This document shows, piece by piece, positions 14,761 through 44,421 of a stretch of 64,000 bases of DNA. The notes beneath the pieces were generated by a model. That model did no database searches. It saw only the letters and a list, made by a program, of their open reading frames with translations, and was not told the DNA's origin. Every line of letters starts with the position of its first letter. The first letter of the stretch is position 1. This stretch comes from Oceanirhabdus seepicola. GTDB lineage: Bacteria > Bacillota > Clostridia > Clostridiales > Clostridiaceae. Position numbers and translations under genes: made by a program. Where the stretch lies: positions 144,148-208,147 of the forward strand of contig NZ_JAGSOJ010000007.1 of the NCBI RefSeq assembly GCF_023684385.1. Direction: 5' to 3'.

Positions 14761-15137
14761 TGCATAGAAAGAGGATTTTTTTTACAATAGCTTTATCTAT
14801 TCTTATAATGTTACTATTATTGTTTTTAGTATATGATTTTGATATGAGCTTGATGAATCTATCTAATGTACTTTTCTTTATGGGTACAGTTTACTTCTTT
14901 CCTGGATTAATTATTGTAACTGGTGCCTCTGAAATATTCAGTAGTGTTGGATATTTAAATAGAAGAATGTTTCGCAAAAATAAAGGTGATGGAAATGACT
15001 TCAAAACATTCAACGATTATAAGGAATATAAGCATATAAAGAGTGCGAAGTATAATACCAAAGGTAAAGGAGTAAATATATTACTTGTTGGTGGGGGATA
15101 TGTTATAATATCCATTGTTATAAGTATGATTATTTGA
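14760..15137 (+). CDS. Small membrane protein with two TM segments and a Lys-rich loop (DUF3899-like)
   Basis: A TAATG overlap with the upstream ATPase places it as the last gene of the operon. It has two hydrophobic segments. Confidence 0.55.
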   Translation: MHRKRIFFTIALSILIMLLLLFLVYDFDMSLMNLSNVLFFMGTVYFFPGLIIVTGASEIFSSVGYLNRRMFRKNKGDGNDFKTFNDYKEYKHIKSAKYNTKGKGVNILLVGGGYVIISIVISMII

Positions 15138-15206
15138 TGGATGTATAAGTTAGAGTTAAAAAGTATACATCTATAGTCACTACAGAAATGAATAAATTAT
15201 ATCGCG

Positions 15207-15262
15207 TAAAAATCTCCAACTTGGTTTAATTTGAATAAAACCAAGTTGGAGATTTTATTTTG
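15207..15262 (+). terminator. Rho-independent terminator of the Opp-like operon
   Basis: 'AAAAATCTCCAACTTGGTTT-aatttgaata-AAACCAAGTTGGAGATTTT' is a perfect stem of about 19 bp, followed by 'ATTTTG'. Confidence 0.85.
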
Positions 15263-15970
15263 CATTGAAGCAGCTAACGATTCAATTATTACAATAGGAG
15301 CAATAGAATGATATATATAATAAGAATGGTAAAATAATTGATAACACTCTTTGATTATGTCAATATATAATAATTCAAAGAATAAAGTATTTAATAAAGA
15401 TATTTAAAAAGCAGTCTCAACATGAAAAGATATTTAATCGTAAGGAATTTAAATTTAGCAGTGGCAATAACATGTTTATTAGAAAGTAGACATGCTATTG
15501 CCACTGCCATGAGATATACAATACTTTGGAATAGTTTTAAGGATGTGAGGAACGAACATGGTTTAAGATAGTCCAAAGTTTCCATATAGAAATGGTGTCT
15601 TAAGGGGAGAGATAACTCTTCTTTTAAGAGGGGGGAAGGGGGGGGAGAAACTTATTGTTGTCAAATGAATAAATGGGGAATTTGATTTATTTGTAATATA
15701 CAATAAAAATTTAAATTATGATAACAGTAGGTTAAATAATGTTGCTTTAAAGGATAATAAAATAAAATCTTTGGAAAAGTTCAAGTGCTGATAAATAATA
15801 GAGTCTTTAGAAAGATAAATAAATATCACAATCTTATGAGAATAGTGAGCAGCTCTTGAGTTTGTCCAAAGCGACCATATAGAGAAATTGATTGGGAAGA
15901 TTAAAATCTTATAAGGGTTAAGGTTTTGTTGTCTTAGATTTATAGAAAATATATAAATATATAAGCTTCT

Positions 15971-16669
15971 TAATCAACTTCAGATAAAAGTCTATTGTAT
16001 AGAAGTATACTATTTGTAATCTTTAGAAGTTCCTTATCAAGTATGTCATTTCCTTTTAAATCACATATCATCTTGAACTTTTCAATAGAGCTTTTGGTTA
16101 TGGGCCCTATTATCCCATCAACAATAAGAGGTTTATTTTCATAAGCTAATATCCCAAGTGAATTTAAGTTCTCCTGGAGTTTATTAATTAGTTCATTGTT
16201 ACTTTTAGTAATCTTACTTTTAATTTAATCATATTTATATAGCTCATTCTCCTCAATTATATATAAGTTTATTAGGATAATCAGGGTCAGTGCAATATCC
16301 ACAAGTATAAAGATTATGACAGCCTTCATAATAGTCTTTTGAGTTAATAACAGGTATATATCTAGATGCTTTAGATAGAAGCTCAGCATAATCATCAAAA
16401 CTATCTTCATAGCTGTTATACTTTCTAAATAAGCACATCATAGGAGTTTTAACTCCATTTATCCATTCATAAGTTTGAAGTTCTTCATATTCAAAACCAG
16501 ATTTTCTAGTCCTTTTAATACCAAATAGATTATTCCCTTTACAGTATTTTAGCCATCCAGTTTCTAGTATTACTTGAGCGATAGTTACTGATGGCAAAAG
16601 TGAATATTTTTCGTCAATCTTTTTTGCATAAGGTAATAATAAAGAAATGACCTTTGACTTGAAACACAT
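15971..16669 (-). pseudogene. Endolysin-like cell-wall hydrolase: N-terminal glucosaminidase domain plus C-terminal PG_binding_1 domain, disrupted by a frameshift
   Basis: The glucosaminidase ORF runs 16253-16669 ('AQVILETGWLKYCKGNNLFGIK', 'YCTDPDYPNKLI'). It has no signal peptide and a 'GGAGGTG' RBS. The peptidoglycan-binding repeat ('LQENLNSLGIL..IVDGIIGPITKSSIEKFK') continues at 15971-16227 in a different frame with no start codon. Confidence 0.65.
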
Positions 16670-16885
16670 TTTATCACCTCCTTCAATATGAATATATGCA
16701 GTAAGTTATTTGGTTTGTAATTCTCATTAAAACTATCTCCTAGTATGAAGTTTTTTTTATAAGTCTATAAATATTTTAGTAGCAATAAAACTACAACATT
16801 TATAAACTCAATATGTTAAAATATAGTATATGTAAAAAAATAGGAATAAGGAATTTTTATAGGAGAGAAAAAAGGGGGGGAGTTC

Positions 16886-17506
16886 ATGCCTATTAAAGAA
16901 ACAAAGATAAGATTATTTTCAAGTGAATTTGAAGAAATGATTAATAAAAGGCAGGTTTCTTCAGATACTGTTTTCATAGATAAAAAAATATGGAATGAGT
17001 ATGGAAAAACCTATAGTATTATGGTTACTGATTTAAGCGGATTTACTAGTAATTCCATTGAGAGAGGAATTTTGAATTTTATTTCATTAATATATGAAGC
17101 TATGATTTTAACAGAGGCTATTGTAGAAGAAAACAATGGAGAGATTTTAAAAACAATTGGGGATACATTTGTAATTCTTTTTCCAAATCCTAAGGATTCA
17201 GTAAAGTGTGCTATAGAAATTCAAAATGCTTTGAGGGTAAGTAATAAAATAAAAGCTGAAAGTTTAAAGCTGCACATGAGTGTAGGTATTGGATATGGAC
17301 AAGTCTTAAAAGTAAGTAATAATGATATATTCGGTGTAGAGCTTAATATAGCTAGTAAACTTGGAGAAGATATAGGAATACCTAATGAAATTTTAATTTC
17401 AGAAGAGGTTAGGAATTATATAAATGAATACGAACTTCTATATAACTATGAATTAATTACCACAGAATATAATATTGGAAAAGTTTATAAATTAAAGTTT
17501 AAGTAA
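16886..17506 (+). CDS. Minimal class III nucleotidyl cyclase (adenylate/guanylate-cyclase fold, 206 aa)
   Basis: The catalytic motifs are 'VTDLSGFT' (metal-binding Asp), 'KTIGDTFVILF', 'VGIGYGQV' and 'GVELNIASKLGE'. A G7 tract forms the RBS. Confidence 0.8.
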   Translation: MPIKETKIRLFSSEFEEMINKRQVSSDTVFIDKKIWNEYGKTYSIMVTDLSGFTSNSIERGILNFISLIYEAMILTEAIVEENNGEILKTIGDTFVILFPNPKDSVKCAIEIQNALRVSNKIKAESLKLHMSVGIGYGQVLKVSNNDIFGVELNIASKLGEDIGIPNEILISEEVRNYINEYELLYNYELITTEYNIGKVYKLKFK

Positions 17507-17628
17507 CATAGGAAAAAAGAGAATAATATAAGATAAATAATAACCATAACTATGAATACTGCTGTTGATAATAAAGTCCTTGTAAATGACTTTTAAATTG
17601 GTAAAGTGACAAAATTAATTCTATTGTA

Positions 17629-17820
17629 AACCAAAATGATATTGTACTTATAGCTGGTAGTTTGCCAAATGGAGTTCCAAAAGATTTATACTATAAATTG
17701 ATACTAGAATGTAAAGAAAAGTGTGCTGAAGTTATACTTGATGCGAGATGAGAACAGATGAGATTAGCTTTAAAGGGTAAGCCTATGATAAACCAATCAT
17801 TGGACTTCAAATAAAGTAAC
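17629..17820 (+). pseudogene. PfkB-family sugar kinase remnant (1-phosphofructokinase / tagatose-6-P kinase-like)
   Basis: The fragment 'NDIVLIAGSLPNGVPKDLYYKLILECKEKCAEVILDAR' is followed by an in-frame TGA and then 'EQMRLALKGKPMINQSLDFK'. It has no start and an internal stop. Confidence 0.55.
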
Positions 17821-17869
17821 AGATAAAAGCTATTTAGCTAAAGTGTAAAGGAATAGAGGGGATGTTCTT

Positions 17870-18695
17870 ACAAGTCTTAGTTATAAATTAAAGGAATTAC
17901 CAAATGATTGGTTTAGATTAATAAAGATAAGAGAAATTATGGATAAAAAAGAAGAACTATCAGATAAGAGAGAATTAAAAAGTGAGAAATTAAATATATT
18001 AGAATGTGCATTAGAGGATTATAGAAAAGCATCTGAAATATTATTTAAATAGATTAGAAGAGGAATTAAAAGACTATCAAATAGCAATAGAAATAAGAGA
18101 AAGATTAGATAAAGAAGGAAAGCTCCCAGATAAAAATTATTTAGTTCAAGTGTACTATAATAGGGTCTTTGTACTTTTAAGGAAAAATCAATATAATGAA
18201 GTTTTAGAAGAAGCATTAAAAGGACTAACTATTTATGTTGATAATCTTCATAATGGAAGGTTTTTATATAATATTATAGTTACTTTAATGCATATGGTAA
18301 CAATGATTTCTAATAAACAAAAATGTTTAGAGAGGTATATTCCATTAGTTGTATCTTGTTTTAAAAGTATTAAAAATAAAGAAGTTACAGAGAAATCTCA
18401 AAAGATGCTAGAAGAAATTGCCTTTGTAATTAATGAAAGAATGGAAAAGGAAAATAAGAAAGATGTACAAGAGTTAATCAGTAGAATTAAAGAGATTTCA
18501 ATAAAAAGACAAGATGATACTAGTGATGAGTTTTTGTTAGCGGATATAATGGAGATTGAAGGTAGTCTTTATGGTTATTACTTTTCTAAGGCTCAGAAGG
18601 AGTTACTTGTATTAAGAATTGTAATATCACAAAATAATGTAAAGGTAGAATTTATTGAAGATGTTAAAGAAATTGAAAGCTATAGAGGAATATAG
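17870..18695 (+). pseudogene. Remnant of a TPR/helical-repeat transcriptional regulator (Rgg/RNPP-like C-terminal domain), frameshifted
   Basis: The ORF at 18150-18695 continues upstream in-frame as '..EEELKDYQIAIEIRERLDKEGKLPDKNYLVQVYYNRV..' with no start. Further upstream (..ECALEDYRKASEILFK*) the sequence continues in another frame. No HTH domain is present. Confidence 0.4.
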
Positions 18696-18811
18696 GAAAA
18701 AAGGGAACACAAAAAAATCGTAAAATGGTAAAAAAGTCTTAAATATTGATAATAGTTATGATTTCATATACGAGTTAATTAAAAGAATATGAAATTTGAA
18801 AGGAGAAGAGA

Positions 18812-21427
18812 ATGAAAAACGTACAATTTAAATTTATTGGACAAGGATCCACTGTTAGTAGTGAGTCAAAATCAGATATCTTAAAACCAAAGAGCAATAG
18901 AATATTCTTAGATGTAGGGAATGCCTTAGATTATAAAAATATAATTATTGATAATCATCAAGAATACTCTAAGTACGATAGTAATAAAGAGAGACCTATT
19001 AGTGTAGCAAGTATTTGTTACAATGAAAAAGACGATATAGAAGAATATCTTCAAAGAATAGAAGAGGACGAAGTTGAAATTGTACTTCATAGCGAACCAG
19101 ATATTGATTGTATTGTTTCTGCCTTCATTATTAGTAAGTACCTAAATAATGAAAAGTTACATAAGGATATGTCAATCATAGTAGATTGTGTTGAACAAAT
19201 TGATTCCGGAAGAATGGAATATAAAAACAATGAAATAATTAATCCTTGTTTCATACCATATGCACTAGATGAGGTTCTTAAAAGACAGAATAATCAAAAA
19301 AATAAATATGAAGAGAAAAAAGCTCAAGAGGCGAAAGAAAAAGGAGAAAGAACACATAAGTATGATATTAACGAAGAAGTAGTTCAAAAAGGTTTTAAGT
19401 TGATTGAAGTAATTCTAAAGTGCTTAAGTAAACTAGATAAAAAAGAAAAATTTTTAGATAATGTTGATATATCAAAAGAAACAGATCTTTTTGAAGAAGA
19501 ATTGATGCTTTTAAAGAAAGATTATGATCTTTACTTAGAAGAGAGAAAGAATGCTGAAATATGTTATGAAAGTAAAGTGAAGCTACCTATAAAAAATAGC
19601 TATGAGAATGAATTAAAAGAGGTGGATGCTTTATTTTGGAATGGAAAATCAAAGTGTATTCTTCATAAGTATTGGGCAAGACAAGATAAAACTGCTCCTT
19701 TAGGAGAAGGATTTATTTTTACATTTATTCTATCACAAATATTAAAAGGAGAGCATCAAGAAAAAAGAATTAAGCATAGGGACATTAATGTTAATAGAGT
19801 TATTATATCTGTAAATCCTAGAAGTGATGTTTCATTAAAAGGGTTAGGAGAGGCACTTGAAAAAGGAGAATGCTTTAAGGAGAAAGAATACTTTAAAAGT
19901 AGAGTAAGTTTATGGAGGAATAGGGGCAAGTCTAGGTTCCCAGAAGAATGGTGTGATAATGATGATCCATGGTATGATGGAAGAAATTTTGATTACACAA
20001 TAGTTGATTCTCCAAGAATAGGAAGTCTTATGAGTATTAGTGAAATAAAGCATATTGTTAATAATTTTACTGCTCCATTAGTAGAGGATTATTTAATAAA
20101 ATATGTTATACCATTCACAATTGATGAAAAGAAATATACTCAACTATGCAAAAAACTCAATAAGATTAAAGGAAATAATCTAGAAGAGGATGAAATTAAA
20201 GAATATTTTTGTAAACCAATACAAACATATTTATTTGAAAATTCCATTGAAGAAAGTAATTCTGGAAATCGTAGTTTTAACTGTAATAAATACTCTTATG
20301 ACATAAAAAGCTTGATAAGAGAAAATATGCTTAATGAAGTTAATGGAAAAACCCTGAATATATCAGATAATATCCTTAATATTATTGTGTTTAAATATGG
20401 AATAGGTTTCATTCATTTTGATATTGAAATTCAAAATGAAGAGAGCAATTTGCGTTTTGATGAGATTCTTAATATTAAGTATGATTTAAGCAATAATACT
20501 ATTGAAGAAAGAATATTCAATAAACTAATTGAAGGAATAAAAATAAAAGAATATGTTGTAGAGAAGAAAAAAGTAATGTTCTTCTCTGGCATTAGTATAA
20601 AATCGAATATATATTATGAAGAAAAGCATAAGAAAATGATATATAAGCAGATGAATTCTATGAACTGGAAAGGCGTTAATCATAATTCTAGATATATGAA
20701 TTATTTCATAGATAGAGATATTATTAAAGCAGACGAAAATACTTATTATGGTTTTAGTAAAAATGGAGGTGCACTACTTATTATTGACGATAATGATAAG
20801 TGTGAAAATTGTACAAGCGACCAGAATGGTGAATCAAATAAGTTGAAATGTATTAATGAATGTGGAAGAAATAAAAATAAAAAAAGTATTCATGATTATT
20901 TTGGAAAAAACGATTTTTATTTATTTTTAATAGCATTACAACAAAGATTGAGTTTACTAGCTTTTGACAATAAACTATCTGTATATGATAAAAAAAGCCA
21001 AAAAAGAGATATACAAAGATTAAGAGGGTTACTGGTTAATTTCACAACACAAGGGTGGTTCAGTGAGGTAACTGAAGATAAGATAGGAACTGTACTTTAT
21101 AAGAAATGGACAGAAATTTTTGAAAATACAGATTTATATAATGAGATTTATAGCCAGTTATCAGCAGTAGATGATTATTATAAAGCAAAAATGTCAAATC
21201 AATTAACACTTATATCAGCCATAACATTTCCTATGGTTTTTATAGGATCAATAGCAGGATTATATGATACAGGATATATGACAAGTGGTAGACAAGTATT
21301 TGAGTTAAAATGGATACCAGCTACAGAAGAGATGGTTGGAGCTTTAAGTATAGGTTGGGGATGTTTTTCTACATTCTCTCTTATGGTATTTTTAATTGTT
21401 ATAATATTTTTCTATCGGAAGAGATAA
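18812..21427 (+). CDS. 871-aa membrane protein with a divergent DHH-family-like N-terminal domain, a central helical region and a C-terminal CorA-like two-TM pore domain
   Basis: The N-terminal 'IVLHSEPDIDCIVSAFIISKYL' fits DHH motifs I/II (H..PDxD..S), and 'SIIVDCVEQ' fits the motif II Asp, but no canonical DHH triad follows. The C-terminus 'NQLTLISAITFPMVFIGSIAGLYDTGYM..ELKWIP..FFYRKR' aligns with the CorA TM1-GMN-TM2 region, with 'DTG' in place of GMN. The RBS is 'AAAGGAGAAGAG'. Confidence 0.65.
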   Translation: MKNVQFKFIGQGSTVSSESKSDILKPKSNRIFLDVGNALDYKNIIIDNHQEYSKYDSNKERPISVASICYNEKDDIEEYLQRIEEDEVEIVLHSEPDIDCIVSAFIISKYLNNEKLHKDMSIIVDCVEQIDSGRMEYKNNEIINPCFIPYALDEVLKRQNNQKNKYEEKKAQEAKEKGERTHKYDINEEVVQKGFKLIEVILKCLSKLDKKEKFLDNVDISKETDLFEEELMLLKKDYDLYLEERKNAEICYESKVKLPIKNSYENELKEVDALFWNGKSKCILHKYWARQDKTAPLGEGFIFTFILSQILKGEHQEKRIKHRDINVNRVIISVNPRSDVSLKGLGEALEKGECFKEKEYFKSRVSLWRNRGKSRFPEEWCDNDDPWYDGRNFDYTIVDSPRIGSLMSISEIKHIVNNFTAPLVEDYLIKYVIPFTIDEKKYTQLCKKLNKIKGNNLEEDEIKEYFCKPIQTYLFENSIEESNSGNRSFNCNKYSYDIKSLIRENMLNEVNGKTLNISDNILNIIVFKYGIGFIHFDIEIQNEESNLRFDEILNIKYDLSNNTIEERIFNKLIEGIKIKEYVVEKKKVMFFSGISIKSNIYYEEKHKKMIYKQMNSMNWKGVNHNSRYMNYFIDRDIIKADENTYYGFSKNGGALLIIDDNDKCENCTSDQNGESNKLKCINECGRNKNKKSIHDYFGKNDFYLFLIALQQRLSLLAFDNKLSVYDKKSQKRDIQRLRGLLVNFTTQGWFSEVTEDKIGTVLYKKWTEIFENTDLYNEIYSQLSAVDDYYKAKMSNQLTLISAITFPMVFIGSIAGLYDTGYMTSGRQVFELKWIPATEEMVGALSIGWGCFSTFSLMVFLIVIIFFYRKR

Positions 21428-21499
21428 GCTTCTAAAAGAGATTTTAAATTTGATTTGGAAAGAAAAAGTTAATATCACTTTTTCTTTCCACAATATGAT

Positions 21500-22453
21500 C
21501 TATTTTAAAGAATTTAGTTCTGAGTTTGTCCAAGACTTAACATGATCAAGGAACAAGTTTAACTCTTGTGAGTCTTCGTCTAAAGGAGTATTTATATCAG
21601 CCACTGTATAAGTGTTCCACACCCTATCGAAAATTCCATCACTGCATACATCGTGCTGACATAAAACAAAAACCTTTAAACCAAGTGCATTAGCAAGTCC
21701 ACCTTCTAGATGTAGCCAACCAGAAGTATATTTGCGATGAACCTCTTCAGTTTCATGACTTGTCCCTTCTTTTTCTCTTAAAAAATAAGCGTGACTTTTT
21801 TCAAGTCCTAATATTACGGCACCTTTACATTGGCTCATTAATTCTCTGATTTTGCCTATAGGATCATGTTTATCATATACAGTAAGGTTAGCACGAACTA
21901 TTTTTATTCCAATAGACTCAAGCTTGTATATAATAGTTTGAATAAAATACTCTTGTTCAGGAGTGTGAGGAGTAATAGTGCTTAGAAATACAGGAACTTT
22001 ATTATCGGGTTTTTCTATTATTTGTTCATTGATTTTTTCATGTTTAGGTGTAGAGAAAGTTTTGTACCAATTTAAGATTACTTCTATCCCAGCAGTTATA
22101 AATTTAGCATCTTCAACCAAAGTCGTCTTTGGTAATCCAGTATGATGAACTAATCTATTTCTGGTGCTTCGAATATTATCACATCTTTGTATAATTTCAT
22201 TTGGAATGGAAGGGAAAGTAGCAGAATGATTTTTATTATATTGATTTAATCTTTGTATTGAACCATTAAGGTCATATGATTTACTATTTGAAATATCTAA
22301 ATCATATGATAGTTGGTTTAAAAATGATTCTATAAAAACAGCACCCCATATTGCACATGAGAAATATTCCTTATTTTCATGGCTTAACATACAATTTTTT
22401 AAATGATAAAAAGATGTTTCTTGTAAATAATCTCTATAATCATTTATGTTCAT
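21500..22453 (-). CDS. Two-domain protein: N-terminal DUF4145/HEPN-like domain plus C-terminal nucleoside 2-deoxyribosyltransferase-like (NDT/Rossmann-like) domain
   Basis: 'IRSTRNRLVHHTG' fits the DUF4145 signature R-x2-(G/R)-N-x3-H and the HEPN Rx4-6H motif. The C-terminal 'KVPVFLS..' and 'SGWLHLEGGLANALGLKVFVL' match the NDT-like motif (D/S-G-T-x-x-E-x-G-x-A-x-A-x-G-K-P-V). The RBS is 'AGGAGGA'. Confidence 0.55.
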   Translation of the reverse strand: MNINDYRDYLQETSFYHLKNCMLSHENKEYFSCAIWGAVFIESFLNQLSYDLDISNSKSYDLNGSIQRLNQYNKNHSATFPSIPNEIIQRCDNIRSTRNRLVHHTGLPKTTLVEDAKFITAGIEVILNWYKTFSTPKHEKINEQIIEKPDNKVPVFLSTITPHTPEQEYFIQTIIYKLESIGIKIVRANLTVYDKHDPIGKIRELMSQCKGAVILGLEKSHAYFLREKEGTSHETEEVHRKYTSGWLHLEGGLANALGLKVFVLCQHDVCSDGIFDRVWNTYTVADINTPLDEDSQELNLFLDHVKSWTNSELNSLK

Positions 22454-22820
22454 AAAGACTTATCCTCCTAGGTAATATTTTTATAAATGTACACAATATC
22501 ATGAGTACATTATATCATTTCAGTAAAGTATTTACTATAAATACAAGTTATGTGTTGTTGTGTTATTAACGAATGTAATGGAAATATATTTCATTGAAAT
22601 ACCAAAACAAAAAAATAGTGATGAAAAGATATGCTAGTAGCATGGACTGAATTCTTAAAAAATACTGAAAGTGAGAAAGTTAGAATCTTAGAAATGAGAA
22701 GTATAATAATAAAAGATAAAGTAATTGCTCTAAATAAAACTAAAGAAGAATTTAGAAAAATGAGGGGTTATTATTAAAATCTTAAGGAGATAGTTTTATA
22801 GCTACATTTAAGAATCTTAA

Positions 22821-22949
22821 TATTGTGTTAAAACAGCTATTCAAATTCTAAGGAGACTAAGATTATACAATATAAATAGAACTGAAAATAACAAGCTTTT
22901 ATTAGGTGTTGGTATTGGCTATGGTGATGTTATAAAGATCGGAAATTAG
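22821..22949 (+). pseudogene. Fragment of a second class III nucleotidyl cyclase, a paralog of the gene at 16886
   Basis: 'TAIQILRRLRLYNINRTENNKLLLGVGIGYGDVIKIGN*' aligns with the cyclase segment 'CAIEIQNALRVSNKIKAESLKLHMSVGIGYGQVLKVSNN'. It has no start and a premature stop. Confidence 0.55.
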
Positions 22950-23316
22950 ATATTTCTTATAAAGAAGCTGAGCATGTCACTGTTGGATTTAAAAAAGCAT
23001 ATAAACTAATTTACAAACTTAAATATGTATAATAATTTCAATGTTAAAAGGAAAATAAAGCAAAAAAGATAGTAAAGGAACTAAGTAAGTGAGCAATAAG
23101 TGAAACTGAAATTTTAATATATATTACTGAAATGGTGCATTAATTATAGGAAAAAGTAATAGTATTATTAATGGATATATAATTTTTAAAATTTATTAAT
23201 AAATTAAGTTAGTTTAAGAATACTAAAGAGGGTGATAAAAATTAATGATATAACTTTTAAATAATGTTTCTTAGGGCATGGACCTCTGTACATAATATAA
23301 ATGAAGATATATTTGT

Positions 23317-23650
23317 TTAGATATTGGTAATAAATTACATTATGGTGTTATAGTCATCATCATTTGAAAAGAGATTTTCGTGTACAACTTCATTAGATAC
23401 AATATCAAAGGATTTGATTCCTGTACCTAAGGGAAAAGTTTATAATATTATTATACATTTTTCTACAGACTTTGACTCACTAGCATCAATTTATTTGGTA
23501 ACGGTATACTTAATAAATGGTGCGTTTCCTAAATATACAGATGATTTAATAGAGTATGTTGAAATAATAGATTCAGGGAGAATGAGTATAGATAAGTTAA
23601 ATTTAAAATGTCCTGCGACAGTTGCTAATTTTTTAGAAATGTCAGTATAG
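23317..23650 (+). pseudogene. Fragment of a second DHH-like/CorA effector gene, a paralog of the 18812 N-terminus, frameshifted
   Basis: 'LDIGNKLHYGVIVIII*' matches 'LDVGNALDYKNIIID'. In the ORF at 23414-23650, 'IIIHFSTDFDSLASIYLVTVYL...IEYVEIIDSGRM' matches 'IVLHSEPDIDCIVSAFIISKYL...IVDCVEQIDSGRM'. The two pieces are in different frames. Confidence 0.6.
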
Positions 23651-24102
23651 AAGCAATAAGGATGAATTAGGCATGAAGCTTTATAATTATTGGGATAATA
23701 TCTTTCAAAACAATATTTTATATGAAGAGGTAACAGAGCGATTAGCTTCAGTGGATGAATATAAAAGAATTGAATGAGATAGAAAAGTGAATAAAATAAC
23801 AGCGATATTTATACCTATAATTTTGTTAGATTAAATATTTGCCATTGGGATATTTGAGGGAATAAATCCAATCAAGATAAGTTTGTTAATAACAGTAATA
23901 ATAACTCGTGTATAATACCACTTATAAGATTTTATTTAGACTTCGAAAAAAATAAATAATGAAATGGGATATAAAATAGAATTTAAATTAAAGAATTTTA
24001 CACTAAGGCTAAAATGTTATTAAACTGTTTTAGTCTTTCTTTATGTAAAAATAAAAAGTATAAGTAAAGCATAAAATTAAAATATCAATAAAGGAGCTGA
24101 TT

Positions 24103-26862
24103 ATGGATAATAATCCTAAGTTAAAAGAAACACTTAATGAATTATGTTTTTATTTACCATTAGAAGTGCAAGTAGATATTGAAGCAGCTTATGATCATTT
24201 GTTAAGGGATAGCAAAAATTATTGTGATGCTATTCAAAGATTAAGGAAAGCAGGGGAAGCGATTACTGCATTAATGGTTGAAGCTTTAGAATACAAGCCA
24301 GCAGTATCAAGAAGTGGAAGTCCAAAGACAATTGCTAGTCAACTAAAATACATAGATGATAAAGATTTCGTTTTTAGTATGGAGGTTGTAAGAGAGAAAG
24401 GTAATGATGTATCACATTCTTCACTAGGAAAAGATAAAAATAGATACAATTTAGAGATGGTATATGAAATATTTAAAAACTTCATTAATTGTGTGATTAT
24501 CTATATTACTAGAGGGTTACATGAAGATGATATTACAGAAAAATTAAATGAAATCGAAAAGAAACACAGTAATAATAAATATAATAATTTGAGTCTTGAG
24601 CAACCAGATGCTTTTGAATCCGAAGATAAAAATCAAGAGTTAGATACTAAAGGTGAAAAAGAAGAGCAAGTTAAATATGATGAGACAAATGATGAAAATA
24701 AAAATTCCAATATGAGTGAAGCTATTGAAAACATGAATTTTCAAAAGTTCCATATTAAAAACGAGAGTTTTAACAATAATGAAATCTTAAAAGATTACTC
24801 ATTTATTAAGTCAGCTAGAAGTTATGATGAAAGAAGAATATATCAAAAGAAAACTTACTTTGATATTGATGGTATTGAAATTGAAAAATCATATATTACT
24901 ACTGATGATATAGGGGAAATAATTTCAACATATGAGGAAGGAGATAAATATAAACTAATAAAGGGAGATTTTGATAGAAATAAAAATAAAAGATTAATTA
25001 TAATAGGTTCAGAAAAATCCCGTGGTAAAAGATCAACAGCAATTAAACTTCTCAGGGAATTAAAAAAGAAAAATGAAATTTTTTATTTTTCTCAAGTAGA
25101 TGAAAGTATAAAACTATACAATTTAAAAAAATATTTGAAAGATAAAAATATTTCCTACAACAAATCTTACATTATTAGAATGCATATAAGCGATCTGTTT
25201 GACTTAAATAAAAAGAATACCTTAGATGAAATTAATCTAGAGTTGAAAAAAAAGCATTCGTACATGGTAATTATTTCGCAGGATAGCTTTGATGACAAAA
25301 AATACAATGAGTATTATTATTCTTGGAATATGGATATAAACTTAGAAAAGATCATGAAAAATAAGATAAAATTCTTTGAGAAATCCTCTAAAAAGTATAA
25401 AAAGTATATTGAAAAATTGAAAGAGGCTGAAATATTTGAAGAACTAAAGCAAGTTCCAATAAGTCCTAGCCTTATAGCTGTTTATGTAAGAAATATTTTG
25501 GAAAAAGATCCACAGCATCCTGAATTTGCTTCACAAGCTAAAAAAGCATACCCTGCAAATTTAAAAGAAGAGGCTAGAAATACAATAGAGAATAATAAAA
25601 ATGATTTAGATGTGCTTTGTAAATTGTTATGCTTAAGTTTATTTCGCAAATTAAACAAGCCTCTATTTAATGACTTAAGTGAAAGTCTGATGCTAAACTT
25701 TAGTGAACTTGTTAATGAAGAAGAAAGACAAGAATTCATGAGTAAAGAGCGCTTGTTAAAGAATGACTCATATGTGGCAGAGAAAATTAATGCTAAAAAA
25801 GAAGTACAAATTATAAAAAGCAATTATGGAGATATTGAAGAAAGTTTCATTGAATTTGAAAATACTCAATTTTACGAAAAAGTATTAGAAAATCTTCTTG
25901 AGAATTATACAAGTATATACAAAGTAATTAGAGAATGGATATTAAAGAGATTTTTATATTTCAATCCAGTATTGGTTCAACTATTTATACCGAGTTTTAA
26001 ATACTTATTTATCAATGATAAGAAAACTATAATAAATACAATTTTAAGTCCATTGGTTAAGAAGAATTCGAAGTACGGTATAAAAAATATATGCACACTC
26101 ATAAATGCTTTAATAGAGATTGATAATGAGAATTTTATAATCGAATTTATTGAAAGAGTTAAGGGAATTAAAAAGCAAAGAGTTAAGAAAATAGTGTTGA
26201 ATTCGATTCCTAAAACACTTCATAAAAAATATCCTTTTAGGACCATTATGATTTTAAGACATTACATTGAGAAAGCATCCTCAATAAAAGAGATTGATGA
26301 ATGTTCATTATGTTTAAGTTTAATGATTGATCATAAAGTAATAAGAGATAATAGGTACATTGCATTAGAAGCTCTGGAAAATTGGTGTTTTGATTGTGAA
26401 GAGGATGAATTTTTTAGAACTAAATCTAAATATATATATCTAAATGCTCTGTACTACAACATGTATAAGAGTGATTATTGCTTTGTGATTGAATATTCGG
26501 AAAATATCGACTTATTAGAGGAGCAAATACTGCCACTATATGAATTGATTTTAAAGGATAAATTTATGCTCAAGCATTTCATTGAGTATATATTCAATGA
26601 AATAAAGTTTATTGGTGAAAAAAAACAAGATCTAGATGAAAAAGTTGATATTATTGAAAATATTCTAACCTTAGTACTAAAGGAAATTAAATTAAGTGAT
26701 AAAAGATATAGGAAATCATTTTTCCCTAAAATTAATTACTGGTTAAGAAAATACAGTAGGGAGTTTAAAGCAGAGAAAAATTTAATTGATATAGTTTTAG
26801 ATAATGTTATTGAAGATAATTATGAAAGGAGAGAACTTTTAAATGAAGGACTTATTGATTAG
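24103..26862 (+). CDS. 919-aa protein with an N-terminal DUF4145/HEPN-like domain, an acidic linker, a possible degenerate P-loop and a C-terminal alpha-helical repeat region
   Basis: 'VVREKGNDVSHSSLG' matches the DUF4145 signature (R-x-x-G-N-x-x-x-H). 'LIIIGSEKSRGKRSTAIKLL' is Walker-A-like but off by one residue (Gx5GK). The RBS is 'AAAGGAG'. The 3' end overlaps the next gene by 20 nt. Confidence 0.55.
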   Translation: MDNNPKLKETLNELCFYLPLEVQVDIEAAYDHLLRDSKNYCDAIQRLRKAGEAITALMVEALEYKPAVSRSGSPKTIASQLKYIDDKDFVFSMEVVREKGNDVSHSSLGKDKNRYNLEMVYEIFKNFINCVIIYITRGLHEDDITEKLNEIEKKHSNNKYNNLSLEQPDAFESEDKNQELDTKGEKEEQVKYDETNDENKNSNMSEAIENMNFQKFHIKNESFNNNEILKDYSFIKSARSYDERRIYQKKTYFDIDGIEIEKSYITTDDIGEIISTYEEGDKYKLIKGDFDRNKNKRLIIIGSEKSRGKRSTAIKLLRELKKKNEIFYFSQVDESIKLYNLKKYLKDKNISYNKSYIIRMHISDLFDLNKKNTLDEINLELKKKHSYMVIISQDSFDDKKYNEYYYSWNMDINLEKIMKNKIKFFEKSSKKYKKYIEKLKEAEIFEELKQVPISPSLIAVYVRNILEKDPQHPEFASQAKKAYPANLKEEARNTIENNKNDLDVLCKLLCLSLFRKLNKPLFNDLSESLMLNFSELVNEEERQEFMSKERLLKNDSYVAEKINAKKEVQIIKSNYGDIEESFIEFENTQFYEKVLENLLENYTSIYKVIREWILKRFLYFNPVLVQLFIPSFKYLFINDKKTIINTILSPLVKKNSKYGIKNICTLINALIEIDNENFIIEFIERVKGIKKQRVKKIVLNSIPKTLHKKYPFRTIMILRHYIEKASSIKEIDECSLCLSLMIDHKVIRDNRYIALEALENWCFDCEEDEFFRTKSKYIYLNALYYNMYKSDYCFVIEYSENIDLLEEQILPLYELILKDKFMLKHFIEYIFNEIKFIGEKKQDLDEKVDIIENILTLVLKEIKLSDKRYRKSFFPKINYWLRKYSREFKAEKNLIDIVLDNVIEDNYERRELLNEGLID

Positions 26863-27979
26863 AGATTATGAAATTGATAAAAGCGTGACGAAGTTATTTT
26901 CTATTAACAGAAAGATTAATGATATTAATATTTCTATGGGAGAGTATCATGTATTACTAAATGAATCTACTGGAAAACACGATGTGTTTGAGTTTGGAAA
27001 TAAGATGCCTAAAACATCTGATTTGATAAAATTCAAGTACAATAAAGGATTTGTACTTAAAAAAAATGCACAGCATATTGATGGAGAATATAAATATAAT
27101 TGTTTAAAAACTAATGATGATTATTATGTGATTTATAGCTTGAAGTATAAAATTAATAATCCTTTAAAAGTTTGTGAAAATATAAATTTGGGTAAAGGCT
27201 CTAAAGAACTTATTAAAAATACAGTAATTCAATATATAAAAAAAGTCTTAGAAAGAAATATTAAATTTGATGTTTATGAATATGATTTGTGTAAGGATGT
27301 AATAGATAATTCATTTAGAGTTATATCATTTGAATCTTTAAATGAACAAATAGAGAACTATGGTATATTAATTGATAAGTGTGAAATAAATGTTACAGGT
27401 AGTAAGGCATTTAAAGAAGAAAGTCAGATGAGATTTAACAACAAAAGAAGTGTTAGGATATTAGAAAATGAAGTTATTACAAAAGATGAAATGAGTGGGT
27501 TAGAAGTTGAAAAGAATAAGATTGAGAATATAGTTAAAAAGAGTAGGGAAATTGAAGGTGTTAAAGTTGAAAATGAAATAGACAGGAAAAGAATAGAAGA
27601 GAGAGTCAAGGTTTTAGCATCAGTAGAACAATATATTGATGATCCTAAAAAATTAGCCTTGTTAAATGAAGAGTTTTATAATAAGGTTCAAGCAGCTGAT
27701 TCAAATGACATTGCTAAGAGAGTTGAAATTGAGAAAGCTAAACTGGAAATTAACAAACAAAAATTGGATATAATCTTAAAAATGAGAGAAGAAGGATTGG
27801 ATGATTATGAGATTGAATCTTTAACTAAGCAGGTGTTTGGATTAGATGATACTTCCAGTGATAACCATCTCAGTGGAAATAGCCGAGAGACAAAACGGTT
27901 AACCAATGAAAGTAAAGAGGAGGTAGAAGAAAGAAAGAATAAATATAAAGGGAAATTTGGAAAAAGGGAAAATGACTAA
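26843..27979 (+). CDS. Divergent SPFH/band-7-like domain protein with a C-terminal charged coiled-coil
   Basis: The fold pattern runs 'GEYHVLLNESTGKHDVFEFG..', then 'TNDDYYVIYSLKYKINNPLK', then '..SKELIKNTVIQYIKKVLERNIKFDVYEY..YGILIDKCEINV', and ends in a KE-rich coiled coil. The gene is translationally coupled to the 919-aa gene. Confidence 0.5.
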   Translation: MKDLLIRDYEIDKSVTKLFSINRKINDINISMGEYHVLLNESTGKHDVFEFGNKMPKTSDLIKFKYNKGFVLKKNAQHIDGEYKYNCLKTNDDYYVIYSLKYKINNPLKVCENINLGKGSKELIKNTVIQYIKKVLERNIKFDVYEYDLCKDVIDNSFRVISFESLNEQIENYGILIDKCEINVTGSKAFKEESQMRFNNKRSVRILENEVITKDEMSGLEVEKNKIENIVKKSREIEGVKVENEIDRKRIEERVKVLASVEQYIDDPKKLALLNEEFYNKVQAADSNDIAKRVEIEKAKLEINKQKLDIILKMREEGLDDYEIESLTKQVFGLDDTSSDNHLSGNSRETKRLTNESKEEVEERKNKYKGKFGKREND

Positions 27980-27995
27980 GAGGGGGTAGTTTGTA

Positions 27996-28865
27996 TTGTC
28001 GAACTTGTGGATTGAATTTGGGGCAATAATATTTATTACTTCGCTTATTTCAATAATATTATTATTGAAAATTTTTATAAAGCCCTTACTATTTATTTTT
28101 AAAATAGTAATTGCTATATTAACGAGCATATTGTATAAAATTGCTTCAATAGCAAATGGGTTAAGGGGATTATCAGATTTTTCAGATAATATTGCATCAA
28201 TATTTAATAAGAAATCTCAGAAGAGTGATAGTAAAAAAAAGGTGTTTAGAAAAAGTTTGCTTATATCTATAGGAATTACAGTTATAAGTTTATTTTTAGC
28301 TAAGCAGTCCAACTTAGATATAACTAAGTACCAATATTTCACTAAATTAATGAACATTGAATATGTGAAAGACTTTATAGGGAATGAAGATACAAGTAAT
28401 ACAAGTGCTAAGAGTGTAGAAAATAAATGGAATCATAATTTTAGTGAGGATGATTTGGTATACCTAAATAGTAGCGCAAAAGTATATGAATATGATGAAA
28501 ATAAAAAAGTACTAACTGTGGAAAGTAAAGTACAAAATAATAATACTAAAGCATATAAAGATGATTTTATTTTAGTTAAAGATGAATATTTTATAAAAAT
28601 TATATTTGATAATGGAGAAGAATTTTTTGTTAACCCTAAAGATATTATAAAAACCTCAAAATATGCAATAGTAAATGCGAAATCTTTAAATTTAAGAAAA
28701 GAACCTAAAGTTAGCAAAGGAAATATCTACTGTGCTATTCATAAGAACGAAAAAGTTAATGTTATATATGAAGATATTAGTGAAGAATGGATATTAGTGT
28801 CTACAGGGGAATATGCAGGATTTGTGTATAGTAAGTATATAGATATTAGTACAAATACTGAATGA
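27996..28865 (+). CDS. Membrane protein with two N-terminal TM helices and a C-terminal SH3b-like beta domain (NfeD-like partner?)
   Basis: The TM region is 'FGAIIFITSLISIILLLKIFIKPLLFIFKIVIAILTSIL'. The C-terminal 'AIVNAKSLNLRKEPKVSKGNIYCAIHKNEKVNVIYEDISEEWILVSTGEYAGFVYSKYI' fits the bacterial SH3 pattern. A TTG start follows the RBS 'GAGGGGGTAG'. Confidence 0.5.
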   Translation: MSNLWIEFGAIIFITSLISIILLLKIFIKPLLFIFKIVIAILTSILYKIASIANGLRGLSDFSDNIASIFNKKSQKSDSKKKVFRKSLLISIGITVISLFLAKQSNLDITKYQYFTKLMNIEYVKDFIGNEDTSNTSAKSVENKWNHNFSEDDLVYLNSSAKVYEYDENKKVLTVESKVQNNNTKAYKDDFILVKDEYFIKIIFDNGEEFFVNPKDIIKTSKYAIVNAKSLNLRKEPKVSKGNIYCAIHKNEKVNVIYEDISEEWILVSTGEYAGFVYSKYIDISTNTE

Positions 28866-29039
28866 GTATTTGTTTATATAGTATATTCGGGCGTAAATAT
28901 TATTTATAAGATTAGGGAATATTGCATTTTAGTCAAAAATAAATTACCTGACTTATTAAGATCTTAACAATAAATAAACATCTGTGTATTTAACTGAAGA
29001 TTTTGAAAACTATACCTGATATTAAAATTAGCCGCGTTA

Positions 29040-29262: not shown

Positions 29263-29562
29263 CTAATTTTTAATTCTCCATTCAAAAAGCATTTTACTAT
29301 AATCATTAATTATAAATTTCAAATACTCATCATCACCGATAATTAGGTCTTTACCTAAAAAAATGCAAAGTTTAAACATAACATCTCTTGAAGGAATAAC
29401 TTTATCATTTTCATACTCATCTATGGTGCGTCTTCCAATGTTAATCAGTTCACATAAGTCGCTTTGGGACAATCCTAATACCATCCTACCTTTTTTTATT
29501 CTTTTACCAAGGGTATCCTCTTGAAGGTGAGAATACAATGAATTATATAGATTGATAACCAT
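29263..29562 (-). CDS. XRE-family helix-turn-helix transcriptional regulator (99 aa)
   Basis: 'LGKRIKKGRMVLGLSQSDLCELINIGRRTIDEYENDKVIPSRDVMFKLCIFLG' is a canonical HTH_3 sequence. Confidence 0.7.
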   Translation of the reverse strand: MVINLYNSLYSHLQEDTLGKRIKKGRMVLGLSQSDLCELINIGRRTIDEYENDKVIPSRDVMFKLCIFLGKDLIIGDDEYLKFIINDYSKMLFEWRIKN

Positions 29563-29820: not shown

Positions 29821-30379
29821 ATCAAACATGTCGATACAAGTTCTTGCAGCTATGTTTTCATGATCAAGCTGAACAAATATTGAGGCAATATATTTAGGGT
29901 GATGACTGTTAATGTTGGTATTTGGATAACAGACGGAGTGGAGGTGGGTATCAGTATTACAATTGGAAGAATGTTAGCATCTACAGGGGAAGAGATATAG
30001 ACAAAGTGGGAGCACAGTGTTACAGGCATAATATCCACACAGTCTTAATTTGAATTGAAGGGAATTACATGTTTGAGGAATGCCAGAGATTTAAAAACAA
30101 CGAGATATAAGTTTGTGTAACTATTTAAAAATATTAAAACTCTATTTCTTATGCATTTGTATTTACCTAATTATTAATATATTTCCATGATTTTCATTCT
30201 TATTATTTACATTTTATCTTTAATATAATAACATATATTTATAATTAAATTATATAATAGTAATATTGGGTCAACATTCCACGAATATGGAGAATTCATA
30301 GTGACCTTGGGAGAAGTGAAAAAAATGGAGTGGAAGATAGTAGTACATAGCTGTGGTGACGGTGATAAAGGGGGTTGTT

Positions 30380-31024
30380 ATGACTGAGTTGTTAAAAAAT
30401 GCTTTTACAGGGATAAATATTATTCCAACTGTGTTGTTGTTAATAGTAGTTTTCTATTGGATCGGCGTTATTTTCGGGGCATTAGGTTTTGATTTTTTAG
30501 ATTTTGAGCTAGATGGTGCTGATAATTCAGGTCCATTCTATGCAGTATTATCATTTCTAAATTTAGCGGAATTACCTTTTATGTTGGTCTTTAGTATTTT
30601 AATTTTAAATTTTTGGATAATAGCTATGTTGATGTATTATCTACCAATAGTCTCTGGAGGTCCAGTAAATGCGGTATTGCTGCTACCTGCTATGGTGGTT
30701 AGTATGTTTATCACAAAGTATGAGACGGTTCCCTTAAAGGGAATTTTCAATGACAGCAGTGTGCAGGAGGAAAGAGGGCGTGAAGTAATTGAACATGAAT
30801 GCATACTTAAGTGCGATTTGGAAAATGGACGATTAGGACAAGCGGAGATAAAAAGAGATGGAGCTTCAATAGTGATAAATGTGAAGTCGGAATTCCATGA
30901 AGAGTCATTCCATAAAGATGAGGTTGCATTTGTTATCAGAAAAGACACTGATAAAAATATATATTATATAGTTAAAATGGAGGAGAAGAAAAATGAGTTA
31001 TTTGATTCAGGTACTATTAGTTAG
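30380..31024 (+). CDS. YqiJ/NfeD-like inner-membrane protein (DUF1449-like), partner of flotillin
   Basis: It has three or four TM helices and a C-terminal soluble beta-rich domain. The ATG at 30380 follows 'AAAGGGGG'. It lies immediately upstream of, and overlaps, the flotillin gene. Confidence 0.6.
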   Translation: MTELLKNAFTGINIIPTVLLLIVVFYWIGVIFGALGFDFLDFELDGADNSGPFYAVLSFLNLAELPFMLVFSILILNFWIIAMLMYYLPIVSGGPVNAVLLLPAMVVSMFITKYETVPLKGIFNDSSVQEERGREVIEHECILKCDLENGRLGQAEIKRDGASIVINVKSEFHEESFHKDEVAFVIRKDTDKNIYYIVKMEEKKNELFDSGTIS

Positions 31025-33008: not shown

Positions 33009-33095
33009 AAGAAAATAACAAGTCAGTATACTCGTATATTTGACTTGTTATTTTCTTCAACATGCCAAAACTACACGTGAATGAGGTAGATAAAG

Positions 33096-43704: not shown

Positions 43705-44421
43705 ATGAAAAATCATTTAGTAATATGTGTTTTGATATTATTAATGGGGGGACTTGGAGGAACAATAAATTATCTTCTTAATAATGAATCCAGAGAAAAA
43801 AATAAGTTTTTTAACGACAAATATTTTTGGTCATGTTTTATCATTGGAATTGGAGCTTCAATCCTTGTTCCATTATTTCTTAATACGATTTCAAGTAATC
43901 TTATTAATGAAAGTGCTAATGATCCAAATAAACTGTACATTATAGCCGGATTTTTTCTGCTAGCAGCAATTTATTCAAAAAAATTTATAAACTCAATATG
44001 GGACAGGGTTACTAAACAAGTTAATGAAAACACCCAACAAATTAGAGCTATTAATAAAGAAACACAACCAATTATTGAAAAAGAAACGGAGGATGATTTT
44101 CTAGGGAAAGAAATTTTCACAACAATATCAGATGAGAGACGGTTAGCTTATAGTAAAAACAATGTAAATGATGAATTTAAAATTCTTAATAATATTATCA
44201 ATGGTAATTATACATTTAGATCAATTAAGGGAATCAGTGAAGAAATAAATATAAATGAGAGTACTGTAATTAAAATAATTGAAGAGTTAATACGAAAAGA
44301 TTATATAGGTATTAGAGATGGGAAAGATGGGGTTAAATATTACATTACTCAAAAAGGAAGAAGATATTATAAATCAGAATTAATGAAAGTAATATCATGG
44401 AATGAGAATAAGAAGGATTAA
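43705..44421 (+). CDS. Hypothetical membrane protein with three TM helices and a C-terminal winged-helix-like region
   Basis: It has N-terminal hydrophobic segments and the RBS 'AAAGGGGGAG'. Confidence 0.45.
   Translation: MKNHLVICVLILLMGGLGGTINYLLNNESREKNKFFNDKYFWSCFIIGIGASILVPLFLNTISSNLINESANDPNKLYIIAGFFLLAAIYSKKFINSIWDRVTKQVNENTQQIRAINKETQPIIEKETEDDFLGKEIFTTISDERRLAYSKNNVNDEFKILNNIINGNYTFRSIKGISEEININESTVIKIIEELIRKDYIGIRDGKDGVKYYITQKGRRYYKSELMKVISWNENKKD

Follow-up and report, generated by a model that had tools for sequence, protein, structure and literature searches.

A HEPN and NDT-like fusion protein of Oceanirhabdus seepicola and its recurrent CorA-like neighbour: a candidate CRISPR-independent abortive-infection cassette

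What a protein that joins a HEPN domain to a nucleoside 2-deoxyribosyltransferase-like (NDT-like) domain might do, and whether it does so alone, is the question raised by a gene of Oceanirhabdus seepicola. It lies within a window of 64,000 nucleotides, by which we mean the whole stretch of DNA analysed here. The 317-aa product is labelled hypothetical at NCBI and “TIR domain-containing protein” in UniRef, and a sequence-only reading of the window had described it as a fusion of a DUF4145/HEPN-like and an NDT-like domain. The open reading frame was found exactly where that reading had put it, intact and running from an ATG to a TAG stop codon (21500–21502), and all the motif strings that it had cited were recovered in their places (Table 1). 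This is far beyond a chance open reading frame, because the identical protein of O. seepicola is on record (WP_250861957.1) and has 82 homologs, with E-values down to 1e-117, in Bacillaceae, Oscillospiraceae and other Clostridia, Planctomycetota, Nitrospirales and metagenomes. A search of 2.9 million viral contigs returned no relatives, an absence that neither supports nor refutes a role in defence.

The gene is situated in a low-GC block. Judged by their match to consensus, an AGGAGG sequence and an extended -10 element would provide it with a ribosome binding site and a promoter of its own, and a perfect inverted repeat in the short gap between this gene and its convergent neighbour is likely to act as a bidirectional terminator, one that a G+C-dependent terminator scan did not call.

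Table 1. Features of the locus, with positions counted from the first nucleotide of the window
Feature	Position	Strand	Basis or remark
Small class III nucleotidyl cyclase	16886..17506	+	Pfam Guanylate_cyc 1.9e-12; PADLOC PycC 4e-7
Conserved CorA-like partner, 871 aa	18812..21427	+	Convergent with the 317-aa gene
Perfect 13-bp inverted repeat with 7-nt loop	21457..21489	.	Inside the 72-bp gap between the convergent genes
Complete gene for the 317-aa HEPN and NDT-like fusion protein (WP_250861957.1)	21500..22453	-	Open reading frame list; exact database match
NDT-superfamily (NDT/DRHyd/TIR-like) alpha/beta module, residues 151-317	21503..22003	-	No Pfam model
Invariant loop DGIFDRVWN after strand 4 (G273, F275, D276, R277, W279)	21614..21640	-	
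Active-site helix and strand SGWLHLEGGLANALGLKVFVL, residues 244-264	21662..21724	-	E250 codon at 21704-21706
E218 (end of strand 3) and 25-residue insert 219-243	21725..21802	-	Alignment and hhalign
Interdomain linker, residues 134-150	22004..22054	-	Low confidence; length and sequence variable in the alignment
HEPN domain, residues 1-133, five helices	22055..22453	-	
HEPN catalytic motif R95-S-T-R98-N99-R-L-V-H103 (Rx4H, Asn after Arg)	22145..22171	-	Holds the codons of R95, R98, N99 and H103
Ribosome binding site AGGAGG	22464-22469	-	10 nt before the ATG of the 317-aa gene; consensus match
Extended -10 element TGATATAAT	22509-22517	-	Upstream of the 317-aa gene; consensus match
Decayed second DHH-CorA-like gene with internal stops	23381..23846	+	tblastn E 6e-5 and 1.5e-6

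The two-domain layout proposed earlier is confirmed by an AlphaFold2 model of the protein (mean pLDDT 89), which consists of an all-helical domain (residues 1–133), a disordered linker (pLDDT <50 at residues 144–147) and an alpha/beta domain (residues 153–317). Single-sequence scans against Pfam, NCBIfam and PADLOC gave no match to the protein, a point that counts against the functional reading given below, and searches of PDB sequences with the protein and with family profiles returned chance matches only. Both domain assignments are based on structure comparison and profile–profile alignment, with no curated threshold passed. In an alignment of 45 sequences the residues R98, N99, H103, W246, E250, G273, F275, D276, R277 and W279 are invariant.

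The N-terminal domain is a helical bundle with the HEPN fold. Within IRSTRNRLVHHTG (residues 94–106) it carries an Rx4-6H motif in which a polar residue follows the Arg, R98-N99-R-L-V-H103, and 108 of the 111 HEPN-plus-module proteins that were collected show the corresponding pattern R[NHQD]xxxH. From this conserved R-N-x3-H and the chemistry known for HEPN domains (PMC3710099), the RNase site is likely to be active. The sequence-only reading had assigned the domain to DUF4145; the motif residues are as cited and the fold is that of HEPN, but Pfam DUF4145 (PF13643, gathering threshold 23.1 bits) gave no match at a cut-off as lax as E≤10, whether the full protein or its first 133 residues were scanned. 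Sub-threshold matches occur in 25 of 45 homologs (best E 5.7e-4). When the HEPN family was compared by hhalign with a 194-aa Neobacillus protein, a genuine DUF4145 reference that passes the gathering score, the alignment was weak (107 columns, E 1.2e-3, probability 19%), with the motifs in register (RNRLVH vs GNFASH) and an ILDWY helix common to both. “DUF4145-like HEPN” is a fair label for the domain, while membership of PF13643 is not established.

The C-terminal domain has a flavodoxin-like alpha/beta fold, the nearest structures being NDT-family enzymes (Foldseek E 7.5e-4). Its first strand corresponds to residues 153–158 of the model, within the string KVPVFLS (residues 152–158). Four solved NDT/Rcl sequences from the PDB were aligned as a reference set, and profile–profile comparison with the family of the C-terminal domain (hhalign, E 1.1e-4, probability 57%, 80 columns) placed E250 on the invariant Glu of the NDT enzymes, the nucleophile of VASEIGVAYAKGIPVVAL, and G252, A254 and A256 on their invariant G/A/A, with the hydrophobic strand that follows A256 also matching. 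E250 thus lies at the N-terminus of a helix, in an E-x-G-x-A-x-A motif. A second acidic residue, E218, aligns to the Asp in the “LLDG” strand of the NDT enzymes; its conservation is 90% or more within the close family and does not extend to distant relatives. The insert after it is family-specific, contains the invariant residues Y223 and H239, and is modelled at a pLDDT of 55–62. The DGIFDRVWN loop is a putative substrate-binding loop, and its G273 is the sole invariant column across 44 distant relatives. What was earlier claimed about this domain stands with respect to the fold and the catalytic-type Glu but not with respect to PF05014 (NDT), which did not match the protein even at E≤10 and gave faint matches, short of the gathering score, in 3 of 45 homologs (best E 0.082); the NDT link is statistically modest, in hhalign as in Foldseek, and this too counts against the functional reading given below.

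The UniRef label points to a different reading, in which the module would be a genuine TIR domain that hydrolyses or cyclises NAD+ in the manner of ThsB or SARM1. The domain does have a TIR-like fold, and NDT and TIR domains share one fold group. Even so, we regard a true TIR domain as very unlikely, since neither the protein nor any of 45 homologs matched Pfam TIR or TIR_2 (PF01582 and PF13676), and the TIR_2 domains of those relatives that have one lie apart from the module, as a second domain. Aligned by hhalign with four TIR_2 domains, the module matched in strand A and helix A only (29 columns, probability 18%), and the alignment did not extend through the catalytic alphaC Glu, as opposed to the 80 columns including the catalytic motif obtained with NDT. 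The motif E-x-G-x-A-x-A-x-G-K-x-V is also of the NDT type. By these comparisons the module is better described as NDT-like than as TIR, and the UniRef label is probably imprecise.

Recurrent neighbours of the HEPN-NDT gene were sought by clustering all open reading frames in 23 loci, a set that was later extended. The only such neighbour is a CorA-like protein, the gene for which adjoins the HEPN-NDT gene in 8 of 27 distinct loci (six Bacillaceae genomes, one metagenome contig and the Oceanirhabdus window). An HMM built from six of these CorA-like proteins found the gene in two loci outside the training set, on the same strand with a 5-bp gap in one (L035, E 3e-158) and convergent, as in the window, in Bacillus sp. 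MKU004 (L034, E 8e-112). Across the CorA-linked loci the order and orientation of the genes vary and the flanks are unrelated; three of those from Bacillaceae also hold a gene for a CBS-domain protein. The partners match the CRISPR CorA models of PADLOC with E-values from 8.7e-5 to 2e-22, two of them over model positions 75–385, and show the build of CorA-family effectors, with a soluble N-domain and C-terminal transmembrane helices. Two such helices are predicted in all partners but one, and two have the GMN signature.

In the window, the 871-aa partner (PADLOC CorA, E 6.6e-21) begins with a DHH-like domain, continues with a soluble domain like that of CRISPR-type CorA and ends in two predicted transmembrane helices (residues 797–818 and 844–870). 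Its DHH-like domain scores below threshold (Pfam DHH, E 3.7e-4) and possesses motif I, the DHH and GGGH motifs not being found; the Bacillaceae partners have neither this domain nor a signal-degrading enzyme of the sort that accompanies CorA in type III CRISPR (NrN, DEDD or a lyase). The decayed second gene of this type, which matches residues 69–136 and 755–817, occupies the other flank of the 317-aa gene. The 64-kb window contains no CRISPR arrays, cas genes or tRNAs, and in the seven other CorA-linked loci there are no arrays and no cas match among the proteins scanned.

A CorA-like neighbour is missing in 19 of the 27 loci, where other genes stand nearby, among them those for a 2,597-aa ATPase, a kinase-TPR protein and TPR-S and, in some Clostridia, for a protein of 660–715 aa that weakly resembles the soluble domain of CorA and has a C-terminal HEPN motif of its own. 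This, and the fact that the two window genes are convergent and not co-transcribed, argues against a joint function. Both observations would suit a single-gene abortive-infection toxin (an RNase plus a nucleotide glycosidase) that is uncoupled from CorA, the adjacency being due to co-location in defence islands or co-transfer; the 317-aa gene has its own promoter-like element and ribosome binding site, and many HEPN Abi proteins work alone (PMC3710099). Nevertheless, we consider this explanation unlikely, as the CorA-like gene is adjacent in all seven Bacillaceae-type loci that have an intact HEPN-NDT gene, with gaps of 5–105 bp on the same strand despite a shifting gene order and unrelated flanks. 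The window adds a case from another bacterial class, with relics of a second CorA-like copy on the opposite flank, and those two Bacillaceae loci that have a broken HEPN-NDT gene are without the CorA-like gene.

The partner that the sequence-only reading had suggested was a different one, the 919-aa gene at 24103, taken to be a further member of the DUF4145 family. Family membership is not established, and partnership found no support, since the 919-, 378- and 289-aa genes have no relatives in other HEPN-NDT loci. Just one homolog of the 919-aa protein exists in 5.8 billion sequences, and the AlphaFold2 model of the protein has a pLDDT of 45, too low for use. Its N-terminus gave no Pfam match at E≤10; hhalign comparisons with the HEPN-NDT proteins were not significant (E 0.12 and 0.73), and one with the genuine DUF4145 protein was in register at E 0.15. 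The sole argument for DUF4145 is a “GN.VSH” motif, conserved and identically spaced. Matching sizes and an SH3 domain had given rise to the idea that the 919/378/289-aa operon corresponds to a Neobacillus set of 194 (DUF4145), 690, 376 and 246 (SH3) residues; it was rejected because BLASTP and phmmer found no similarity between the two.

The C-terminal module is much more widespread than its fusion to HEPN, and no Pfam model covers it. An exhaustive HMMER search with the profile of this domain found 1,342 cluster representatives (clusters defined at 50% identity) at E≤1e-3, of which 908 remain at E≤1e-10. Among 128 new, distant representatives, the module is N-terminal to another part in 43 and C-terminal to a non-HEPN partner in 25, while 41 are stand-alone modules of about 170 aa, 17 have the HEPN-plus-module architecture and 2 have further sequence on either side of the module; all but one of the 128 keep the W-x3-E pair. 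Its fusion partners include TIR_2 (as a separate domain), CHAT, trypsin, a DUF676 esterase, DUF4231/SLATT, pentapeptide repeats, Sel1 and EAD7 with EAD1, and the module also follows Ser/Thr kinase and class III cyclase domains. According to Kaur et al. (PMC7159879), EAD1 and EAD7 recruit effectors, and proteins of the TIR–deoxyribonucleotide hydrolase (DRHyd)–SLOG fold are predicted to generate second messengers through base release. The module behaves like this class of predicted messenger generators; in one protein it takes the effector slot beside EAD7 and EAD1. One stand-alone copy was seen in an operon between two ThsB_TIR genes, together with a caspase, a DUF1353 protein and a membrane protein, and with McrBC next door; the contigs of two others (P0152 and P0172) were too short for an informative context.

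A conserved Glu at an E250-like position also occurs in non-catalytic ligand-binding relatives, for example SLOG, and the NDT-like module might itself be a non-catalytic sensor of a messenger that is made elsewhere, for example by the class III cyclase nearby in the window. This cyclase is 25% identical (E 2e-17) to one that is fused to an NDT-like module in a planctomycete locus (L026), which hints that it may belong to the wider HEPN-NDT locus. The bound module would then switch on the HEPN RNase, as CARF does in Csm6 or SLOG in ThsA, and the CorA-like protein would be a parallel effector of the same signal. A sensor of this kind appears improbable to us, as about a third of the representatives are stand-alone modules without any output domain, and as a module beside EAD7 and EAD1 holds the place of an effector. 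Moreover, the two- to three-gene cassettes of Bacillaceae lack a recognisable signal synthase, and the conserved acidic residues coincide with catalytic positions of NDT.

Classical NDT and DNPH1 enzymes are metabolic, which raises the alternative of a housekeeping enzyme that serves nucleoside salvage or RNA turnover and takes no part in conflict. It is extremely unlikely that the 317-aa protein is such an enzyme. The family is patchy across phyla, and its flanks are variable and often rich in defence genes or mobile elements, including patatin, transposases, SLFN, McrBC, methyltransferases and STAND-like ATPases. Fusion partners of the module are conflict-type domains, copies have become pseudogenes in two genomes, and the low-GC block surrounding the 317-aa gene speaks against a housekeeping function too.

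Both domain types, the CorA effector and the use of glycosidase-fold enzymes in immune signalling are already known. With respect to the NDT enzymes, DNPH1 (Rcl) and the MilB-BcmB CMP N-glycosidases, the protein has no sequence-level match to any solved structure, and it differs from NDT/DRHyd enzymes by the 25-residue insert (invariant Tyr and His) before the Glu helix, the invariant DGIFDRxWN loop, the fusion to HEPN and a conflict-system context in place of a metabolic one. The HEPN domain resembles the DUF4145-type domains linked to Abi and R-M systems (PMC3710099) in its fold and, in the weak alignment with a genuine DUF4145 protein, in an R/G-N-x3-H in register and the ILDWY helix. It differs from them in staying below the Pfam gathering threshold and in having W36 and E42 in place of the usual N-terminal helix signature. 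Fusions of DUF4145 with TIR and other effectors are known, and an NDT-like fusion with a CorA partner does not appear in that survey (PMC3710099).

In type III CRISPR systems, SAM-AMP gates the membrane effector CorA, which has the DHH phosphodiesterase NrN as a companion, either as a separate protein or in a fusion (PMC10600005). The partners described here match the CRISPR CorA models over soluble and transmembrane parts, and the window protein with its DHH-like domain recalls the nrn-corA fusions of Aliarcobacter (PMC10600005). Unlike type III-B CorA-NrN, the HEPN-NDT loci have no Cas10/Cmr and no CRISPR array (in the 64 kb and the seven other loci), the catalytic DHH motif of the window protein is unrecognisable, and the associated gene is of the HEPN-NDT type. 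A genetic link between CorA and a HEPN RNase with a Rossmann-like second domain also exists in Actinomyces type III systems, where CorA is coupled or fused to Csm6-2 (PMC11229360). However, the second domain of Csm6 and Csm6-2 is an N-terminal CARF, as opposed to a C-terminal NDT-like module with catalytic-type residues, and the HEPN-NDT/CorA system would be CRISPR-independent.

Thoeris offers parallels in logic (bioRxiv 10.64898/2025.12.03.692087). Type VIII has ThsI, a CMP-hydrolase effector of the NDT superfamily, and so uses for an immune effector the fold found in our protein; type X has a TIR protein and an ion channel, with an unknown signal, and shares the two-gene arrangement of a glycosidase-fold enzyme with a membrane or ion-channel effector. 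A single Thoeris operon can also contain both kinds of effector, membrane and CMP-hydrolase. The HEPN-NDT cassette differs in having no TIR/ThsB gene and no TPR fusion, in the fused HEPN domain and in a partner that is a CRISPR-type CorA. As the cassettes contain no TIR gene, only the NDT-like module could fill the role of a ThsB-type TIR synthase. HEPN, CorA or DHH in this combination are absent from the text of the Thoeris preprint and from PADLOC.

Of the several explanations, we tentatively favour, at somewhat less than an even chance, one where the HEPN-NDT protein, with both of its heads enzymatically active, forms a CRISPR-independent cassette of the abortive-infection type with the CorA-like membrane protein. 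The HEPN domain, with its intact R-N-x3-H site, would be a metal-independent endoribonuclease, and the NDT/DRHyd-type module an N-glycosidase that breaks a base–sugar bond with E250 as nucleophile, candidate substrates being NAD+, a (d)NMP or a similar nucleotide-like molecule. Phage infection would activate the protein, probably via oligomerisation, because HEPN sites and sites of the NDT/TIR type span subunit interfaces. Once activated it would cut RNA, while the glycosidase would either drain an essential nucleotide or liberate a nucleotide derivative that causes the CorA-like channel to open. In O. seepicola, the DHH-like domain fused to CorA would destroy the signal product and so reset the system. 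This reset is speculative, because the Pfam match to DHH is at an E-value of 3.7e-4 and the DHH and GGGH motifs are unrecognisable.

The two outcomes of the glycosidase reaction make up two versions of the proposed cassette. In one, the NDT-like module is a non-TIR synthase of an immune signal, and a product of base cleavage or base exchange gates the CRISPR-type CorA channel, a version that is conceivable but rather doubtful when taken for itself. In the other, the protein is purely a nucleotide-depleting and RNA-cutting effector beside CorA, which we would also call unlikely. We slightly favour channel gating, because the minimal cassette of Bacillaceae contains no other candidate synthase, and because relatives of CorA are ligand-gated and the copy in the window carries a DHH-like domain.

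Neither a HEPN and NDT-like fusion family, nor the unmodelled module family, nor a recurrent pairing with CRISPR-type CorA outside CRISPR was found in PADLOC, Pfam or the literature searched, and the HEPN-NDT/CorA pair may well form a two-gene anti-phage module not described before. Until now, effectors of the CorA family had been described solely as accessories of type III CRISPR systems, gated by SAM-AMP that is made by Cas10 (PMC10600005, PMC11229360), and here, in at least eight CRISPR-free loci, a CorA-type effector travels with a HEPN and NDT-like protein. If the pair is functional, either CorA channels can respond to a messenger from a source other than Cas10, possibly an NDT-fold enzyme, or CorA and a HEPN/glycosidase toxin constitute a new, signal-free abortive-infection pair. 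An NDT-fold synthase, if real, would be a new enzyme class beside the TIR, CD-NTase, Cas10 and Pycsar cyclases, the pathway would be a Thoeris-like one that combines this enzyme with CorA/NrN components known to date only in type III CRISPR, and the module family of more than 1,300 clusters would hold many more synthases. A curated model for the C-terminal module, with its 1,342 clusters, would improve the annotation of defence islands, and the HEPN-NDT/CorA pair makes the gating of CorA without Cas10 a testable question.

The gene adjoining the HEPN-NDT gene encodes a protein in which a DHH-like domain precedes a CorA-like effector, the same architecture as that of an NrN-CorA fusion. Its DHH-like domain has no recognisable DHH/GGGH catalytic motifs, and no CRISPR or cas genes occur in the 64-kb window around it. 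Upstream of the HEPN-NDT gene, an "empty" region of 1.65 kb holds the decayed relic of a second DHH-CorA-like gene, with internal stop codons and a deletion of about 600 residues from its middle.

Both the DHH-CorA and HEPN-NDT genes, together with the cyclase gene and the genes for the 919-, 378- and 289-aa proteins, are found in a block of low GC content that ends near a gene for an HTH_3 regulator; neither an integrase nor a tRNA was found for this block. Among 5.8 billion sequences the near-orphan 919-aa protein has a single homolog (44% identity), and its N-terminus may carry a DUF4145-like motif (GN.VSH). Beyond the block lie three co-directional genes, which may represent a further conflict or stress system: the SPFH/Band-7 protein contains a long coiled coil, and the ATPase combines DUF3686, DUF7902 and AAA ATPase domains. 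Further along, a YLATT (YEATS-like-associating three-TM) domain is fused to a winged-helix DNA-binding domain.

Features in the window and in other loci carrying HEPN-NDT homologs or the NDT-like module
Feature	Position (strand)	Description
Low-GC block	window ~15000-29000	24-29% GC vs 31-36% in flanks
Class III nucleotidyl cyclase	window 16886-17506 (+)	small, 206 aa; weak similarity to Pycsar PycC
181-aa gene	window 18150-18695	
DHH-CorA gene	window 18812-21427 (+)	871 aa; N-terminal DHH-like domain, CRISPR-type CorA-like 2-TM effector
DHH-CorA-like relic	window 23381-23846 (+)	matches intact copy at residues 69-136 and 755-817
Operon	window 24103-28865 (+)	919-aa, 378-aa and 289-aa genes; 289-aa product SH3_3 with N-terminal TM
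HTH_3 regulator	window 29263-29562 (-)	
Gene trio	window 30353-38033 (+)	223-aa membrane protein; 671-aa SPFH/Band-7 protein; 1,645-aa ATPase
YLATT-domain protein	window 43705-44421 (+)	238 aa
Soluble proteins, Clostridia	L021:2303-4447, L025:6033-8180, L029:7679-9667	660-715 aa; upstream of HEPN-NDT homolog
CBS-domain proteins, Bacillaceae	L009:11050-11775, L010:12560-13309, L019:17165-17920	241-251 aa; adjoin HEPN-NDT + CorA-like pair
P0139 operon	L036:4617-8031	stand-alone NDT-like module, 170 aa
Short direct repeats	L019:5032-5326	flagged in CRISPR-like scan

Elsewhere, the soluble proteins of the three Clostridia loci weakly resemble the CorA-like family in its N-terminal soluble domain (E 1e-8 to 6e-6), lack TM helices, and possess a C-terminal HEPN motif of their own (YRNxAAH). 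In three Bacillaceae loci, the N-terminus of the CBS-domain protein gives faint matches to HEPN families (MtlR/HepT). The repeats in one of these (L019) fall within a 479-aa ORF and so probably represent a tandem repeat in coding sequence rather than a CRISPR array.

The stand-alone module resides in an operon of the order ThsB_TIR, Peptidase_C14, module, DUF1353, ThsB_TIR and 8xMP, adjoined by a McrBC restriction system. In planctomycete proteins (P0080, P0081, and at locus L026) the NDT-like module is fused to a cyclase domain homologous to the window cyclase (25% identity, E 2e-17). This cyclase, the 181-aa gene and the DHH-CorA gene may constitute one locus.
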